In this document: piece by piece, positions 1,513 through 32,743 of the stretch | Numbering within the stretch: the first letter of the stretch is position 1 | How the letters are laid out: each line of letters begins with the position of its first letter | DNA from: Geopsychrobacteraceae bacterium | GTDB taxonomy: Bacteria > Desulfobacterota > Desulfuromonadia > Desulfuromonadales > Geopsychrobacteraceae | NCBI GenBank assembly: GCA_963662315.1 | Contig: OY759353.1 | Location: 768,001-832,000 of the forward strand | Reading direction: 5' to 3' | Length of the DNA: 64,000 nucleotides | Translations under genes and position numbers: made by a program | Notes under the pieces: generated by a model | What the model was told of the DNA's origin: nothing | What the model saw: the letters and a program-made list of their open reading frames with translations, nothing else | Databases searched by the model: none

Positions 1513-1945
1513 TAAATATACGTCAATCCTTGGTGGGGTCTCTCGATGACCTCGCCACTCTCCAACCACCAACTTAACCCTAAAGTTACCCCTCTCGCTG
1601 ATGATCTGGTTGAAGTCTCCCTGACACTTCCGGATGATCTCGTTCATGACTTCCTCTTAGTCTTAGACTCACTGACCAATCTCGCCACCATTGTTCGAGC
1701 CAAGACCCGTTTAGCCAGGTACAAAGATAAAGCCGACGATATCCTTCAGGCCGAACGCTTCAAAGAGCGTGATGCTTTCTATGCTCGTGTCGTTAACCTG
1801 TACGACTGTCACATGGCTCGTGGCCTTAAACGTGATGCTGCTATCAAGCTGATCTCTAAGGAGCTACGCAAAGAAAAACATCCTTGGGCCTCGATCGAGT
1901 TGGTCAGGTCTTCTCTTGTTGCTGGTGGCCGGCCTCGTCAACGGA
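1496..1945 (+). repeat. ~450-bp direct repeat, copy A (partner 4034-4486)
   Basis: Direct comparison by eye: about 16 substitutions plus a 3-nt insertion in copy B. Confidence 0.95.
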
Positions 1946-1956
1946 GGAACTCATGA
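1546..1956 (+). CDS. Hypothetical 136-aa element protein (orf1), basic, with a possible helix-turn-helix-like C-terminus
   Basis: Retained in both copies with mostly synonymous differences; stop codon overlaps the rep start (ATGA). Confidence 0.8.
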   Translation: MTSPLSNHQLNPKVTPLADDLVEVSLTLPDDLVHDFLLVLDSLTNLATIVRAKTRLARYKDKADDILQAERFKERDAFYARVVNLYDCHMARGLKRDAAIKLISKELRKEKHPWASIELVRSSLVAGGRPRQRRNS

Positions 1957-2969
1957 ACTCCTCCGCTCCGATCCTTGCGGGGGCGTCCTGTAACACGCCC
2001 CCGCTAAATACAGAACCAACCCTTGATATTGCTACTATTCCTGAACAAAATCGAATAGTTATAGATTGGCTTGAAGTGACACTTCCTGACGAGTTTCGAT
2101 TGCAAAATAAATATCATTCCTTGAAGCATTATATCCGTATCTCTGGGGCTAAATTCAGTACTGCTCCCCGTGGCATGAATGGTTATTTGACCCGCATCAT
2201 TTACGGCAAAGCAGAGATTCTCATGGATGGCTCCGAAGGTATGGGCGTACACGTTATTCTTTCCGGTCAAGCCCTCCGGCAAATGGAGAATAGCCCTCTG
2301 GATTTTCTGCATTGGTGCCTCCACCATGATGGGAAGGTTTCCCGGATCGACCTTGCGTTGGATGATGTATCAGGCGAATTGACCCTCAATCGCGTTAAGC
2401 GTGCTGTTCGTGCTGGTGCTGCTTCCTGCAAGGCTAAACAGTATCGTCACATGGAAAGCGGTAAAGTCTCGACCGGTGAAGTCACTGGGGAAACTTTTTA
2501 TTTTGGATCAGCAAAGAGCGATACTCAGTATCGTATTTATGATAAGGCTGCAGAGCAAGGTCTAGATGGGCATTGGGTCCGCTGTGAAGGTCAATATCGG
2601 CATGAAAACGCTCATCGTGTCGCCCAGTTGGTCCATGCTGCAAAATTCGATATCGGCCCTATTTTCTGCGGTCTTCTCCGAGGCTATCTCAACTTCTTAA
2701 AGCCTTCGAAGACTGATAGCAATAAAAGCCGCTGGAAGGTCGCTTCTTGGTGGCTCGATCTTCTGCAAAGTGCTGAAAAGATAAAACTTTCCGTTCCAAA
2801 ACAGAAACCTACGATGGAACAGAAACTTAAATCGTTCACTAAACAAATGGCTCCAACTCTGGCAATGCTCGCAAGCTATTATCCTTCTCAAGTGATGAAA
2901 GATATGATGATGAATGGTAGATCCAGGTTAACTCAGGAGCAGCTAGAAATGTGTACGATTCCATTCTAA
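1953..2969 (+). CDS. Rolling-circle replication initiator, Rep_trans (PF02486-type; RstA/NicK/pT181 RepC-like)
   Basis: Motifs 'IDWLEVT', 'SRIDLALDD', 'GETFYFGS', 'RIYDKAAEQ', 'WVRCEGQYR'. ATG at 1953 with GGAGG at 1943-1947 is preferred over the TTG at 1884. Confidence 0.9.
   Translation: MNSSAPILAGASCNTPPLNTEPTLDIATIPEQNRIVIDWLEVTLPDEFRLQNKYHSLKHYIRISGAKFSTAPRGMNGYLTRIIYGKAEILMDGSEGMGVHVILSGQALRQMENSPLDFLHWCLHHDGKVSRIDLALDDVSGELTLNRVKRAVRAGAASCKAKQYRHMESGKVSTGEVTGETFYFGSAKSDTQYRIYDKAAEQGLDGHWVRCEGQYRHENAHRVAQLVHAAKFDIGPIFCGLLRGYLNFLKPSKTDSNKSRWKVASWWLDLLQSAEKIKLSVPKQKPTMEQKLKSFTKQMAPTLAMLASYYPSQVMKDMMMNGRSRLTQEQLEMCTIPF
1977..2004 (+). promoter_or_regulatory. Candidate nick-site hairpin (dso/oriT-like) inside the 5' end of rep
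   Basis: Perfect 10-bp stem GCGGGGGCGT/ACGCCCCCGC with loop CCTGTAAC. Confidence 0.55.
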
Positions 2970-3082
2970 CAATTTGCCGTTTATAGGGGAACGGCACTCG
3001 CGCAAGGGTTTCTTAACACTGCACTCCCCTACTCTTTCTCATACTGTCAGTTCTTGTAGTTCCAGCTGCTAGAACGATGCAT

Positions 3083-3112
3083 ACCGGTAGACTCTCTACT
3101 ACCGGTTTTTTT
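3083..3112 (+). terminator. Intrinsic terminator-like hairpin downstream of rep
   Basis: ACCGGTAG-actctcta-CTACCGGT followed by a T-run. Confidence 0.6.
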
Positions 3113-3127
3113 ATGGTGCGGAACAAT

Positions 3128-3404
3128 GCCGGTTGCGGTTGCGGGTTAACCCCGCACCGCACCGGCTTTAACCGCACCGCTCACCAATCCCGCTAGTTAT
3201 TTGCTGCTCCGCTACGCCATGCAAAACCATTTGTTTCTCTAAGAGAGACAGGCGCGCAACAGTTTGTAGCTACCTTCGTTTAGGTCAGGCGGCCCGCAAG
3301 GCCGAGCGACTGGGGACCCGCACGGGGTTACGTCCCCGTGTGGGGATTGGAAGCGATCCTGAACGACGGTAATAAGCCCCGATCTGTAACACTGGGGCGC
3401 TTAT
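3128..3404 (+). other. Hairpin-dense intergenic region (candidate single- and double-strand origin region)
   Basis: Stem-loops at 3128-3166, 3321-3340 (CACGGGG-ttacgt-CCCCGTG) and 3372-3404 (GCCCC-gatCTGTAACACt-GGGGC). Confidence 0.55.
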
Positions 3405-3418
3405 CTCAATTTTTTACT

Positions 3419-3452
3419 TTGACAATGGTGCTAGAAAAGTAGTACTACTTTT
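3419..3452 (+). promoter_or_regulatory. Sigma70-like promoter with an 18-bp palindromic operator upstream of the RHH gene
   Basis: TTGACA at 3419-3424; perfect palindrome AAAAGTAGTACTACTTTT at 3435-3452 covering the -10 position. Confidence 0.65.
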
Positions 3453-3476
3453 ATATTCCAACATGGAGGAAATATT

Positions 3477-3740
3477 ATGGCTCATGCTGACAGGAAGCAA
3501 TTTTCTATTTATTTAACTGATGAGCAAAACGAAAAGATTACTAAGTATGCTAAAAAGCTTGATATCTCAAAGCAAAGAATGATGTCAAATCTCCTTGATA
3601 TCGGTCTGGAAGATGTAGCAGTTCTTGATAAGATGGGCGTTTTGTTTTTAGGCGCAAGGGTTCGTGATCTAGTTCATAAGATCAAAAATGTTGACCCTGA
3701 TAAATTGGAGTCTTATTACGACGAATCGGAAGAGAGTTGA
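3477..3740 (+). CDS. Ribbon-helix-helix (CopG-like) DNA-binding protein
   Basis: 'RKQFSIYLTDEQNEKITKYAKKLDISKQRMMSNLL' has the beta-strand plus two-helix RHH pattern; RBS GGAGG at 3465-3469. Confidence 0.75.
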   Translation: MAHADRKQFSIYLTDEQNEKITKYAKKLDISKQRMMSNLLDIGLEDVAVLDKMGVLFLGARVRDLVHKIKNVDPDKLESYYDESEES

Positions 3741-3782
3741 CGTGTAGGTCAGTTTAATACTAGGATCTCAACCAATAAATGG

Positions 3783-3947
3783 TACAAGGACAGGTAACGC
3801 CAATTACCATATCTTGTATATGACAATTTGAACAGGAAAGCCCCTCAGAGCGCCAACTCCGAGAGGCTTAAACAAGGTGAAGCAGCAGAGCGCCAACTCT
3901 TTAGCTTCGTCGAATACCACCATCCTTCGGGGGATCAGGGGATTCTT
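3783..3947 (-). ncRNA. Candidate counter-transcribed antisense RNA with three UUGGCG-capped stem-loops
   Basis: Hairpin loops CGCCAA (+ strand) at 3798-3803, 3851-3856 and 3891-3896; minus-strand promoter directly upstream. Confidence 0.55.
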
Positions 3948-3952
3948 TTGTG

Positions 3953-3981
3953 ATCATATTTGTAATATGGGGATGTGTCAA
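3953..3981 (-). promoter_or_regulatory. Near-consensus sigma70 promoter firing leftwards
   Basis: Minus strand TTGACA (3981-3976), 17-nt spacer, TATGAT (3958-3953). Confidence 0.7.
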
Positions 3982-4022
3982 CCTCTCTCCTTCTTTGACG
4001 AATTATCAAAGAAAAACGAGAC

Positions 4023-4050
4023 ATTCAAAAACCTATATATTATGCGACGT
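4023..4050 (-). promoter_or_regulatory. Hybrid dif site (right junction): intact XerC arm and spacer, degenerate XerD arm
   Basis: Minus strand ACGTCGCATAA-TATATA-GGTTTTTGAAT; 17 bp identical to the site at 1496-1512, other arm diverged. Confidence 0.8.
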
Positions 4051-4083
4051 TAAATATACGTCAATCCGTGGTGGGGTCTCTCG

Positions 4084-4494
4084 ATGACCTCGCCATTCTC
4101 CAACCACCAACTTAACCCTAAAGTCACCCCTCTTGCTGATGATCTGGTTGAAGTCTCCCTGACGCTGCCGGATGATCTCGTCCATGACTTCCTCTTAGTC
4201 TTAGACTCACTGACAAACCTAGCCACCATTGTCCGAGCCAAGACCCGTTTAGCCAGGTACAAAGATAAGGCCGACGATATCCTTCAGGCCGAACGCTTCA
4301 AAGAGCGTGATGCTTTTTTCTATGCTCGTGTCGTTAACCTGTACGACTGTCACATGGCTCGTGGCCTTAAACGTGATGCAGCTATTAAGCTGATCTCTCA
4401 GGAGCTACGCAAAGAGAAACATCCTTGGGCCTCGATCGAGTTGGTCAGGTCTTCTCTTGTTGCTGGTGGCCGGCCTCGTCAACGGAAGACTTAA
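4084..4494 (+). CDS. Hypothetical element protein orf1, second allele
   Basis: Near-identical to 1546-1956: L5F, one extra F, one K>Q, altered last residues. Confidence 0.8.
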   Translation: MTSPFSNHQLNPKVTPLADDLVEVSLTLPDDLVHDFLLVLDSLTNLATIVRAKTRLARYKDKADDILQAERFKERDAFFYARVVNLYDCHMARGLKRDAAIKLISQELRKEKHPWASIELVRSSLVAGGRPRQRKT

Positions 4495-4649
4495 AGCATT
4501 ACATAAAAGAATTGTTCACCAAGCAAGTCGCCCCGTCCATGGCCTTTCTCTTTAAATATTACGGCCCTGAAACTATGGCCGAAATCATGACAAACGGCAT
4601 GTCTCGTTTAACTCAGGAACAACGGGAACTCTGTTCGATTCCGTTTTAG
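4487..4649 (+). pseudogene. Rep_trans C-terminal remnant
   Basis: 'FTKQVAPSMAFLFKYYGPETMAEIMTNGMSRLTQEQRELCSIPF' aligns with the Rep end 'FTKQMAPTLAMLASYYPSQVMKDMMMNGRSRLTQEQLEMCTIPF'; catalytic region absent. Confidence 0.8.
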
Positions 4650-4654
4650 AAAGG

Positions 4655-4858
4655 TTAATGATTTTCTGCAACCCAAGATTTTTCTATGCGATCAAAAACA
4701 TAATTCTTAACAATATTGCTACCGATAGGACCACCGATGCCTTCAATGCGCAGATCTCCTCCGGCATATTTAGATGACACAGCTTTGGCTTGTTCAAGAC
4801 TATTTGTAGATTCAACTAGTTTGCCATTGACGTAAAGGTTGTAAATGTAATCGGACAT
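4655..4858 (-). CDS. Small hypothetical protein (67 aa), possible element cargo
   Basis: ATG at 4858 preceded by AGGAG; converges on the rep remnant. Confidence 0.55.
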   Translation of the reverse strand: MSDYIYNLYVNGKLVESTNSLEQAKAVSSKYAGGDLRIEGIGGPIGSNIVKNYVFDRIEKSWVAENH

Positions 4859-5070
4859 TTCAACTCCTTGAGGCTGATAGCTATTCACGATGCTGATACG
4901 CTTAATAATTTATCAGAACATTTAGACATGGCAATCCTTCTGTTTTTTTCTGGATGACTGCAAATAAGCTTTCTGAAAACATCTTAATGATTGGGCTTCC
5001 CGCTTTCCAAGCAAAAGCTCTAGCCTGGGATTACAGGCTAGAAAAAATGGATAAATACATGGTGACAATA

Positions 5071-5103
5071 AAAAAGCCGACTTGTTGTTCAAGTCGGCTT
5101 TTT
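5071..5103. terminator. Bidirectional intrinsic terminator downstream of tRNA-Pro
   Basis: AAAAAGCCGACTTG-ttgtt-CAAGTCGGCTTTTT. Confidence 0.85.
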
Positions 5104-5106
5104 ACA

Positions 5107-5183
5107 TGGTCGGGATGATAGGATTTGAACCTACGGCCCCTTGACCCCCAGTCAAGTGCGCTACCAGACTGCGCCACATCCCG
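5107..5183 (-). tRNA. tRNA-Pro(GGG)
   Basis: Minus strand CGGGATGTGGCGCAGTCTGGTAGCGCA...CTTGA-CTGGGGG-TCAAG...GGTTCAAATCC...CCCGACCA; upstream TTGACA-17-AATAAT with a GC-rich discriminator. Confidence 0.97.
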
Positions 5184-31849: not shown

Positions 31850-32743
31850 TTAACCCCTCGGGTGAAATTGTGTGTGAATCTTTTTCAGACGCTCTTGCAG
31901 AACATGGGTGTATATCTGAGTCGTTGAAATATCTGCATGCCCCAGCATACTTTGAACCGAACGCAAATCTGCACCATTCTCAAGCAGGTGGGTCGCGAAA
32001 GAATGACGCAGAATGTGCGGGTAGACCGGTTTACTGATGCTGGCTTTTAATGCGTAAGCGCGTAAATTTTTCCAGAATCCCTGACGACTCATATTGAGTC
32101 CGTGGCGATTCAGAAATACGAAATCGATCTTGTTGTCTTTTTTTAGAATTAATCTACCCTCGTGCAGATAATCAAGTAAAAATTCGAGAGCGACCTCCCC
32201 CAAAGGAATAAGACGCTGTTTTGCCCCCTTCCCTAGCGTTGTAATACACCCAACATCGGCTTTGATGTCACTTAACTTCAGATTGACCAATTCCGATACC
32301 CGCATGCCGGTTGCGTACAGGACTTCAAGCATGGCCCGGTCTCTTTGAACCGCAGGACCTGAACCTTGTGGTGCGGTCAGTAAAGATTCAACTTCACTCT
32401 GAGATAACAGCTTTGGCAGGGGTTGATAAATCTTAGGGGTTTCGATTAGAGCCGAAGGGTCCACAATGAGAAGGTTTTCCTTAACCAGAAATCGATGAAA
32501 GCCTCTTATGGAACTTAACACGCGTGCCCGACTGCGCGGAGAAATTGCCTTCTTTTTCTGCAAGAAGGTCAAATATTCAATAACGTGCGTCTGCTGGATC
32601 TCTGCTGCCCCTGAAAGATGACATTGTCCCTCCAGATAGTCGGCGTAATTTGTCAGGTCGCGACCATACGCACTCAGGGTGTTTGGGGAAAGCCCTTTTT
32701 CCACCGTCAGAAAATTTAAAAAACGATCGATAAGATCATTCAT
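31850..32743 (-). CDS. xerD: Site-specific tyrosine recombinase XerD
   Basis: 'LYATGMRVSEL', 'HILRHSFATHLLENGADLRSVQSMLGHADISTTQIYTHV', 'HPRG' end. Confidence 0.93.
   Translation of the reverse strand: MNDLIDRFLNFLTVEKGLSPNTLSAYGRDLTNYADYLEGQCHLSGAAEIQQTHVIEYLTFLQKKKAISPRSRARVLSSIRGFHRFLVKENLLIVDPSALIETPKIYQPLPKLLSQSEVESLLTAPQGSGPAVQRDRAMLEVLYATGMRVSELVNLKLSDIKADVGCITTLGKGAKQRLIPLGEVALEFLLDYLHEGRLILKKDNKIDFVFLNRHGLNMSRQGFWKNLRAYALKASISKPVYPHILRHSFATHLLENGADLRSVQSMLGHADISTTQIYTHVLQERLKKIHTQFHPRG

Follow-up and report, generated by a model that had tools for sequence, protein, structure and literature searches.

A conserved gene beside attP in small integrase-less dif elements of Desulfuromonadia and its possible part in Xer recombination

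How can a small element that encodes no recombinase, and whose attachment site attP has only one good arm, make use of the chromosomal dif site, and what is the role of the short gene lying immediately beside this attP? The question is raised by a locus of a Geopsychrobacteraceae bacterium (genome G000, contig OY759353.1) situated in a stretch of 64,000 nucleotides, which is called the window below and whose positions are used here unless a prefix is given. The element found in the window carries a short open reading frame (ORF), orf1, next to dif, and a second copy of orf1 follows the far junction of the element. The comparison of genomes points to orf1 as the hallmark, attP-adjacent gene of small integrase-less dif elements in Desulfuromonadia. 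With a probability of about 0.4, its product is an element-encoded accessory factor of host XerC/XerD, which would assist the recombination of a one-armed attP with dif without FtsK.

The two copies of orf1 beside dif

The features on which the argument depends are the following.

1485-1512, + strand: chromosomal dif, with the XerD arm at 1485-1495 (AGTTTACATAA), the centre at 1496-1501 (TATATA) and the XerC arm at 1502-1512 (TTATGCGACGT)
1546-1956, + strand: orf1 copy A, 136 amino acids (aa), the stop codon overlapping the ATG of rep (ATGA)
1953-2969, + strand: rep, rolling-circle initiator with Rep_trans (PF02486) and Rol_Rep_N, Pfam E 7e-45
4023-4050, + strand: attP-derived junction, with a degenerate XerD arm at 4023-4033 (ATTCAAAAACC), the centre at 4034-4039 and the XerC arm at 4040-4050
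4084-4494, + strand: orf1 copy B, 136 aa, solo copy
4506-4649, + strand: rep remnant, the last ~47 codons of a rep of a different lineage (blastx)
31850-32743, - strand: host xerD (TIGR02225, 376.9 bits, over the cut-off)
G000:1317545-1318417, outside the window, strand n/a: host xerC (TIGR02224, 343.1 bits, over the cut-off)

The sequence AGTTTACATAA-TATATA-TTATGCGACGT has the proteobacterial dif layout of XerD arm, 6-bp centre and XerC arm, and is the only site of dif type near the terminus. Over the 4.71-Mb chromosome, the cumulative GC skew reaches its maximum at ~760-770 kb, where this site is located, and its minimum at ~3.05 Mb. Since a sequence of dif form lies at the GC-skew maximum, the left site at 1485-1512 is the chromosomal dif. 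Besides XerC and XerD, the host genome encodes FtsK with a gamma domain. The junction at 4023-4050 agrees with dif in every base of the centre and of the XerC arm, and in 4 of 11 bases of the XerD arm (ATTCAAAAACC). The ORFs of the element are orf1, rep and an ORF resembling ribbon-helix-helix (RHH) proteins; no recombinase is encoded. By its sequence, the element is classified as an integrase-less TLC-type integrative mobile element exploiting Xer recombination (IMEX) with a degenerate XerD arm in attP.

The similarity between the two copies starts at the dif centre and takes the form of a direct repeat of ~0.45 kb (1496-1948 versus 4034-4489, starts 2538 bp apart) with 96-97% identity. In both copies the ATG stands exactly 33 bp past the 11-bp XerC arm (arms 1502-1512 and 4040-4050), a distance that an earlier note, made from the sequence of the window, had put at about 33 bp. 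The same note had counted by eye about 15 substitutions, about 13 of them synonymous and two non-synonymous, plus an in-frame Phe. Codon-by-codon comparison over codons 1-133 gave precisely these values, namely 15 substitutions, 13 synonymous and two non-synonymous (L5F and K105Q), with one added TTT (Phe) codon past codon 77 of copy B, within a T-run (4314-4316). The last three codons and the stop differ between the copies because their similarity stops at the rep junction. For the whole gene, the Nei-Gojobori method yielded 14 synonymous and four non-synonymous substitutions (dS 0.155, dN 0.013, dN/dS 0.085), and the synonymous excess between the copies has P = 3e-6 by a binomial test. The dN/dS value, whose comparison across homologues the note had suggested, is 0.127 relative to the homologue at locus L003 and 0.085-0.13 among close copies. 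These values show a genuine gene under purifying selection, encoding a 15.5-kDa protein, and bear out the reality of the ORF proposed in the note. The 13:2 pattern demonstrates purifying selection since the divergence of the copies, and is silent on selection after the loss of rep from copy B.

The sequence data of the four public runs consist of contigs. In the Logan contigs of two samples, copies A and B were recovered as separate pieces, and the copy-B contig of the second sample (run X4) is devoid of the TTT, the extra Phe codon being polymorphic. The copies are therefore distinct alleles and not an assembly duplicate, as the note had maintained. It might still be argued that orf1 is a chance, non-functional ORF in duplicated DNA. 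The only support for this is that it has no annotation and no known family, and the reading is refuted by the 13:2 synonymous excess (P 3e-6), by 97 representative relatives at E <= 0.001, by the occurrence of family members in 80 of the 401 class genomes, and by a confident AlphaFold2 (AF2) model with a predicted local distance difference test score (pLDDT) of 91.5; its probability is negligible.

The survival of orf1 in the copy that lost rep, also pointed out in the note, is evident from copy B, which is intact and has only a rep remnant downstream. This remnant shares 77% identity with the Rep of locus L050 and 59% with the Rep of copy A, and the orf1 proteins of copies A and B are 97% identical. 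Because the remnant rep differs to this extent and the orf1 proteins do not, either neighbouring copies of orf1 are homogenised or attP and orf1 travel together as one block. A right-hand junction (degenerate arm, centre and chromosomal XerC arm) was looked for past copy B and past the L003 solo, and none was found. A joint of 1525 to 5100 that skips both copies, present in three runs of one sample, was considered as a trace of excision and rejected: one of its sides has only 30 letters, and the joint does not run from core to core.

The orf1 family, its predicted protein and known Xer activators

A survey of the class (401 sampled Desulfuromonadia genomes, 103 genera) found the family in at least 80 genomes and in 43 genera, the former number being a lower bound, as a diverged or decayed copy at locus L058 (genome G166) was scored as absent. 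There, an ORF on the minus strand (~1390-1500) starts ~30 bp past the XerC arm, and its translation resembles the N-terminus of orf1 (..TPLEDDQV..), which suggests a family member. A phylum-wide survey of 401 genomes gave six matches, all in Desulfuromonadia, and the family was found in 0 of the 387 genomes belonging to other classes. The tblastn search against plasmids and phages returned no match, and pattern scans of IMG/VR and JGI metagenome contigs with the close-family alignment revealed no relative and no free circular form.

At the 30 best family loci, a 26-nt dif probe (<=7 mismatches, within 1.5 kb) matched in 29 cases, the exception being L037. Eighteen of these loci also have a half-site in which a degenerate XerD arm adjoins a preserved centre and XerC arm, and one more was ambiguous. 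The copies often stand in tandem beside dif. In genome G278, dif is followed by four orf1+rep units 2437 bp apart and a terminal solo orf1, and a diverging copy lies across dif; the attP sites of this array have the dif centre, the XerC arm and a degenerate XerD arm, as in the window.

Three kinds of family members can be distinguished by size and place. Short forms on the XerC side are 133-149 aa long and start 24-36 bp past the XerC arm. Mirror short forms are found on the other side: they face away from the XerD arm, the gene start lying 15-33 bp from it, and at their far junction the XerC arm is the degenerate one and the XerD arm is preserved (L004 and L049, with L030 as the long-form equivalent). 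Mirror elements on the XerD side were recorded at L004 (5484-5924, - strand), L032 (1201-1629), L035 (2460-2759), L048 (13472-13897) and L030; in several genomes, therefore, elements stack on both sides of one dif. Among Vibrio IMEXs, too, attP of left- and right-armed type have been described (PMC12715192). Long forms measure 160-245 aa and are the last gene of elements of 1.4-1.7 kb that consist of HTH_17, RHH and the orf1 relative and have no Rep. In the maximum-likelihood tree of 41 orf1-family proteins, long and short forms make up two clades (100/99), and the mirror forms are nested in the short clade.

The 1.4 kb downstream of each of 20 distinct short-form genes was searched for Rep. 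Nine genes are followed by a Rep, which is of the Rep_trans type in the window, G278 and G110 and of the unrelated REP_ORF2-G2P type in L004 (twice), L038, L040, L043 and L035; two have a remnant only, and nine have nothing Rep-like. Eight of the latter nine are intact full-length ORFs beside dif (solos). The deletion junction of copy B is not that of the L003 solo, from which it follows that solos originated repeatedly. In all nine intact short-form elements, with either Rep family, the rep start overlaps the orf1 stop by 4 nt. At L004 (7138-9443), the Rep behind the plus-strand orf1 homologue stops early (253 aa from the ATG) and is followed by putative insertion-sequence ORFs. Because the G278 unit encodes orf1 and Rep only and has no counterpart of the 87-aa RHH-like ORF of the window, orf1 is the sole protein common to Rep_trans, REP_ORF2-G2P and Rep-less elements. 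The 87-aa ORF was considered as a second hallmark and discarded, being absent from the G278 unit and dissimilar to the RHH proteins of the mini-elements.

Searches of Pfam, PHROG and NCBIfam gave no match above noise for either copy, and a PDB sequence profile search gave nothing meaningful for orf1. A word-indexed search of 5.8 billion proteins retrieved only seven relatives, and a profile search of 1.84 billion representatives retrieved 97 at E <= 0.001, including 34 at E <= 1e-10. In the family alignment of 67 members, which was also the basis of the AlphaFold model, hmmscan (E <= 0.01) found DUF3653 (PF12375), FtsK_gamma or any Pfam family of helix-turn-helix (HTH) or RHH type in none, and DUF3653 was missing from the two window copies at E <= 1.

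The AF2 model comprises strands at residues 13-17 and 21-25, helices at 30-91, 96-109 and 117-126 and a basic tail, that is, a predicted beta-hairpin, one ~60-residue helix and a small basic HTH-like three-helix domain. There is no HTH_XRE-type Pfam match, the modelled N-terminus consisting of the beta-hairpin and the long helix. Foldseek comparison with PDB and BFVD gave no match at the cut-off of E <= 0.001, and the ESM Atlas contained unnamed clusters only (0.91). VIA-align weakly matched residues 67-136 with HTH and winged-helix DNA-binding domains at Z 5.2-6.7, under the trust level of 8. The best matches were cullin WHB (Z 6.7) and the DeoR DNA-binding domain (Z 6.2), accompanied by TnpE, Mu transposase, Fis and small terminase; FtsK-gamma was not among the 50 structural matches listed, and the N-terminal part of orf1 was scarcely covered. 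The best-conserved columns of the family are P29, G93, L107, W114 (in an HPW motif) and G128. In the last helix the surface positions are variable, and the preceding helix is conserved.

The known factors of comparable position come from Vibrio and Xanthomonas elements. XafT (VC1465) of TLC-phi is described as an HTH_XRE and DUF3653 protein that binds XerD and is encoded beside the XerC arm of attP (PMC6744903, PMC9226527); it possesses a dimerisation domain (PMC9226527), and TLC integration, with an attP that has no XerD arm, is reported to need it strictly (PMC6744903, PMC9226527, 10.64898/2026.06.12.731946). DUF3653 proteins are described there from gamma- and beta-proteobacteria (PMC6744903, PMC9226527). 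XafV (ORF136) of VGJ-phi, a structural relative of XafT, is said to lie immediately beside attP in every element of its type and to boost XerC-first reactions on a two-armed attP, and in Vibrio a resident XafT or XafV raises later IMEX integration (10.64898/2026.06.12.731946). PSB15 (ORF9) of Xanthomonas phiLf-UK, another DUF3653 protein, is reported as dispensable for integration and as binding the packaging signal and the membrane (10.1101/2024.03.19.585677).

DUF3653 was found neither in the window genome nor in any of 401 genomes sampled from the class, which thus offers no known Xaf. The hhalign comparison of the orf1 family gave 0.4% with an alignment of 27 DUF3653 sequences drawn from relatives of the Cf1c protein, 0.4% with XafV, which itself has a weak DUF3653 match, and 0.2% with 13 FtsK-gamma domains (PF09397) from the window genome and its relatives. 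Because all these profile comparisons were negative, orf1 appears to stand outside every known Xer-activator family. The literature searches found no IMEX report for Geobacter-type bacteria or Desulfuromonadia, and no Xer activator family beyond XafT/XafV.

The resemblance to XafT is one of place and setting. Both proteins are small, both genes adjoin the XerC arm of an attP with a degenerate XerD arm, both belong to integrase-less elements with a rolling-circle Rep and arrays at dif, and XafT, as described, likewise combines a dimerisation part with a small effector domain. However, orf1 has neither HTH_XRE nor DUF3653, being predicted to fold as a hairpin, a long helix and a three-helix domain; its family occurs in Desulfuromonadia only, whereas XafT is described from gamma- and beta-proteobacteria, and XerD binding is reported as demonstrated for XafT, whereas for orf1 it is hypothetical. 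XafV, with 136 aa and a place immediately alongside attP, is comparable to orf1, but it is related to XafT and DUF3653 and is reported with a two-armed attP, whereas orf1 is unrelated and goes with a one-armed attP. The gamma domain of FtsK is a small helical domain of winged-helix type, and the C-terminal domain of orf1 has weak winged-helix and HTH matches, but the two share no profile similarity and the orf1 model has no wing. PSB15 is, like orf1, a ~15-kDa hallmark protein of dif-integrating elements, but it is described as a DUF3653 binder of packaging signal and membrane, to which orf1 is unrelated by comparison with the DUF3653 family alignment.

Other features of the element and its surroundings

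The remaining features of the window element and its right flank are listed here.

3083-3113, + strand: terminator-like hairpin with a T-run, closing the orf1-rep operon
3241-3370, + strand: GC-rich structured non-coding stretch, 86% identical to each G278 array unit (DNA fold -30.5 kcal/mol, z -2.75)
3477-3740, + strand: 87-aa RHH-like ORF, weak (Pfam RHH_3 E 0.08; PHROG 4085 E 2e-5; weak Arc-like repressor matches)
3846-3899, + strand: CAGAGCGCCAACTC twice at an interval of 40 bp, each time in the loop of a small hairpin, kept in the G278 units
5107-5183, - strand: tRNA-Pro(GGG), the right chromosomal neighbour of dif in relatives

The 14-nt repeat CAGAGCGCCAACTC at 3846-3899 is likely, by its arrangement, to mark the double-strand origin or a Rep site. 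The stretch 3241-3370 is far better conserved relative to G278 than the rest of the tail and has no Rfam match, the Rfam scan of the region giving nothing beyond the tRNA; it might serve as single-strand origin or in some other cis function. The 87-aa ORF possibly encodes a repressor.

The promoter consensus scan detected no plus-strand promoter in or right before the 33-bp leader of orf1, and no repeated operator was found in this leader. The nearest promoter-like site of the plus strand is at 3737-3766, upstream of the attP of copy B. The best promoter-like site of the region lies on the minus strand at 3953-3981 (TTGACA, 17 nt, TATGAT; 11/12), faces leftward into the origin-like repeats and is followed by no ORF; an antisense or primer RNA may start here.

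Empty dif sites of relatives show the order recG, dif, terminator, tRNA-Pro in G022 and recQ-like gene, dif, unrelated gene in G172, a genome of the same genus. The 13 bp past the XerC arm (TAAATATACGTCA; 1513-1525 and 4051-4063) and the outer arm end are inverted repeats of each other. The sequence TAAATATACGTCA was also found, with one change, at the empty dif (L060) of G172, which has no orf1. As it is shared with an empty dif, the identity of attP and dif reaches beyond the canonical 28 bp.

In most Rep-less mini-elements there are one to three copies of the palindrome TTGTCSGACAA (L026 1047-1087, L029 2424-2465, L036 959-979, L037 1345-1365 and 3071-3091, L024 368 and 2012, and others), often at a distance of 70-90 bp from the degenerate attP arm; the window element has no copy. 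One of the three small DNA-binding proteins might use the palindrome as its operator or as an accessory site. A second Rep_trans gene of the genome, outside the window (G000:C1:3739224-3742606), is located beside two tyrosine-recombinase genes and belongs to a different integrative element with its own integrases.

Possible roles of orf1

The reading that we favour, at a probability of about 0.4, is that of an accessory factor for host XerC/XerD, a role that the note had also considered by analogy with XafT, and under it orf1 would most likely be a functional analogue of XafT/XafV with an unrelated fold. The long helix would make orf1 a dimer. Contacts with XerD or XerC, with DNA bordering the core, or with both would fall to the C-terminal domain of three helices, which is basic and conserved. 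Such a dimer might bridge and stabilise the synapse between dif and an attP that binds one recombinase, and so license strand exchange without FtsK. A leader of 33 bp is too short to accommodate a promoter, and none was detected there by the scan; the promoter would therefore have to lie upstream of attP or across it. Transcription of orf1-rep would then enter through attP from the element tail (with 3737-3766 as the candidate site), and would be on in circles and in inner array units and off, being cut from the promoter, in a single integrated copy.

Several observations are in line with an accessory factor. The attP is one-armed, the element has no recombinase of its own, and the host provides XerC, XerD and the FtsK gamma domain. 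The genes xafT and xafV, according to their descriptions, also adjoin their own attP, xafT on the side of the XerC arm. No known Xaf occurs in the class, orf1 is the only shared protein, and no match was obtained on plasmids, phages or IMG/VR contigs. Eight intact solos persist beside dif without a downstream Rep, and among close copies dN/dS is 0.085-0.13. The comparison of genomes ties the family more firmly to dif than to Rep, orf1 being the only gene common to elements with two unrelated Rep families and to Rep-less mini-elements. Other observations weigh against it. The binding of XerD or XerC by orf1 is hypothetical, and hhalign reveals no sequence relation to DUF3653, XafV or FtsK-gamma. 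The weak likeness of the C-terminal domain to ordinary HTH and winged-helix DNA-binding domains would equally fit a regulator, and the overlap of the orf1 stop with the rep start in every intact short-form element is what would be expected of a co-regulated operon partner. The position of the gene also varies, the long-form gene standing 130-230 bp from the degenerate arm and not 33 bp from the good one. To our knowledge, CTX-type IMEXs integrate without a factor of their own. The att-adjacent hallmark protein PSB15 is reported as dispensable for integration, binding the packaging signal instead (10.1101/2024.03.19.585677).

The main rival, which we regard as somewhat unlikely, is a DNA-binding protein that regulates its own operon, orf1-rep, or controls its copy number, or else an accessory protein of Rep, the alternative named in the note. 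CopG lies upstream of repB in rolling-circle plasmids of the pMV158 type, and orf1 resembles repressors of the CopG/RepA type as a small gene just upstream of a rolling-circle rep and co-translated with it. The 4-nt overlap, kept with two Rep families in nine of nine intact short-form elements, the basic, HTH-like C-terminal domain, the variable surface of the last helix behind a conserved one and the company of RHH and HTH_17 regulators in the long-form operon all speak for this role. From the CopG/RepA-type repressors orf1 differs in that it is three times longer, has no RHH Pfam match, occurs also without rep and is modelled as a two-strand hairpin with one long helix rather than as strand-helix-helix. 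Against the role of a regulator, the family is kept in Rep-less mini-elements, which already hold two other regulator-type proteins, and in the eight intact solos; the pairing of one subfamily with two unrelated Rep families makes a Rep-specific contact unlikely, and the scan of the leader revealed no repeated operator.

Two further explanations were considered. Elements without structural or transfer genes must hitch-hike, and orf1 could be a mobilisation or packaging adaptor which, like PSB15, binds a DNA signal of the element on behalf of a helper phage or transfer system. PSB15 is a precedent for such a hallmark protein of an IMEX (10.1101/2024.03.19.585677), and the conserved structured stretch at 3241-3370 could offer a signal. 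This role is very improbable: a Zot/pI-type assembly gene was looked for in the window genome and none was found, phage and viral-contig collections contain no relative, and the solos are intact though no DNA of the element is left to package. A resident role beside dif, in immunity or exclusion or as a landing-pad helper for later integrations, would account for the eight intact solos and for the nine of 20 genes without a downstream Rep. Solos of independent origin (the junctions of copy B and L003 differ), and the position of those of the window and G278, chromosome-distal to an array of newer units, agree with it, as does the reported increase of later IMEX integration by resident XafT/XafV in Vibrio (10.64898/2026.06.12.731946). 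But in the tree the solos group with the intact copy from their own genome and may be young or gene-converted, the dif-proximal end is the least prone to deletion whatever the function, and some copies are pseudogenes, several matches being interrupted by stop codons. The idea of a landing pad belongs within the Xer-factor reading, with which it overlaps. On balance, a resident role is quite improbable.

A bolder form of the Xer accessory-factor reading is rather unlikely. In it, the orf1 family would be a third, structurally unrelated kind of Xer-hijacking factor that licenses a one-armed attP of either polarity, without the XerD arm as in the window or without the XerC arm as in the mirrors of L004, L032, L035 and G278, and the solos would be resident helpers promoting the stacking of arrays.

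The IMEX lifestyle and att-adjacent Xer activators are already known. What is new is a protein family beside attP that lacks any known domain, is restricted to Desulfuromonadia, goes with both attP polarities and includes minimal Rep-less units. The family marks dif-integrated elements in about one fifth of the sampled genomes of a class that includes Geobacter-type metal reducers. If orf1 is a Xer helper, the hijacking of dimer resolution would have evolved more than once, with unrelated proteins, and attP together with orf1 would make a compact two-gene system for the activation of XerC/XerD without FtsK. Should orf1 turn out to be a regulator, the family would still serve as a practical marker for IMEXs and for dif in Desulfuromonadia.

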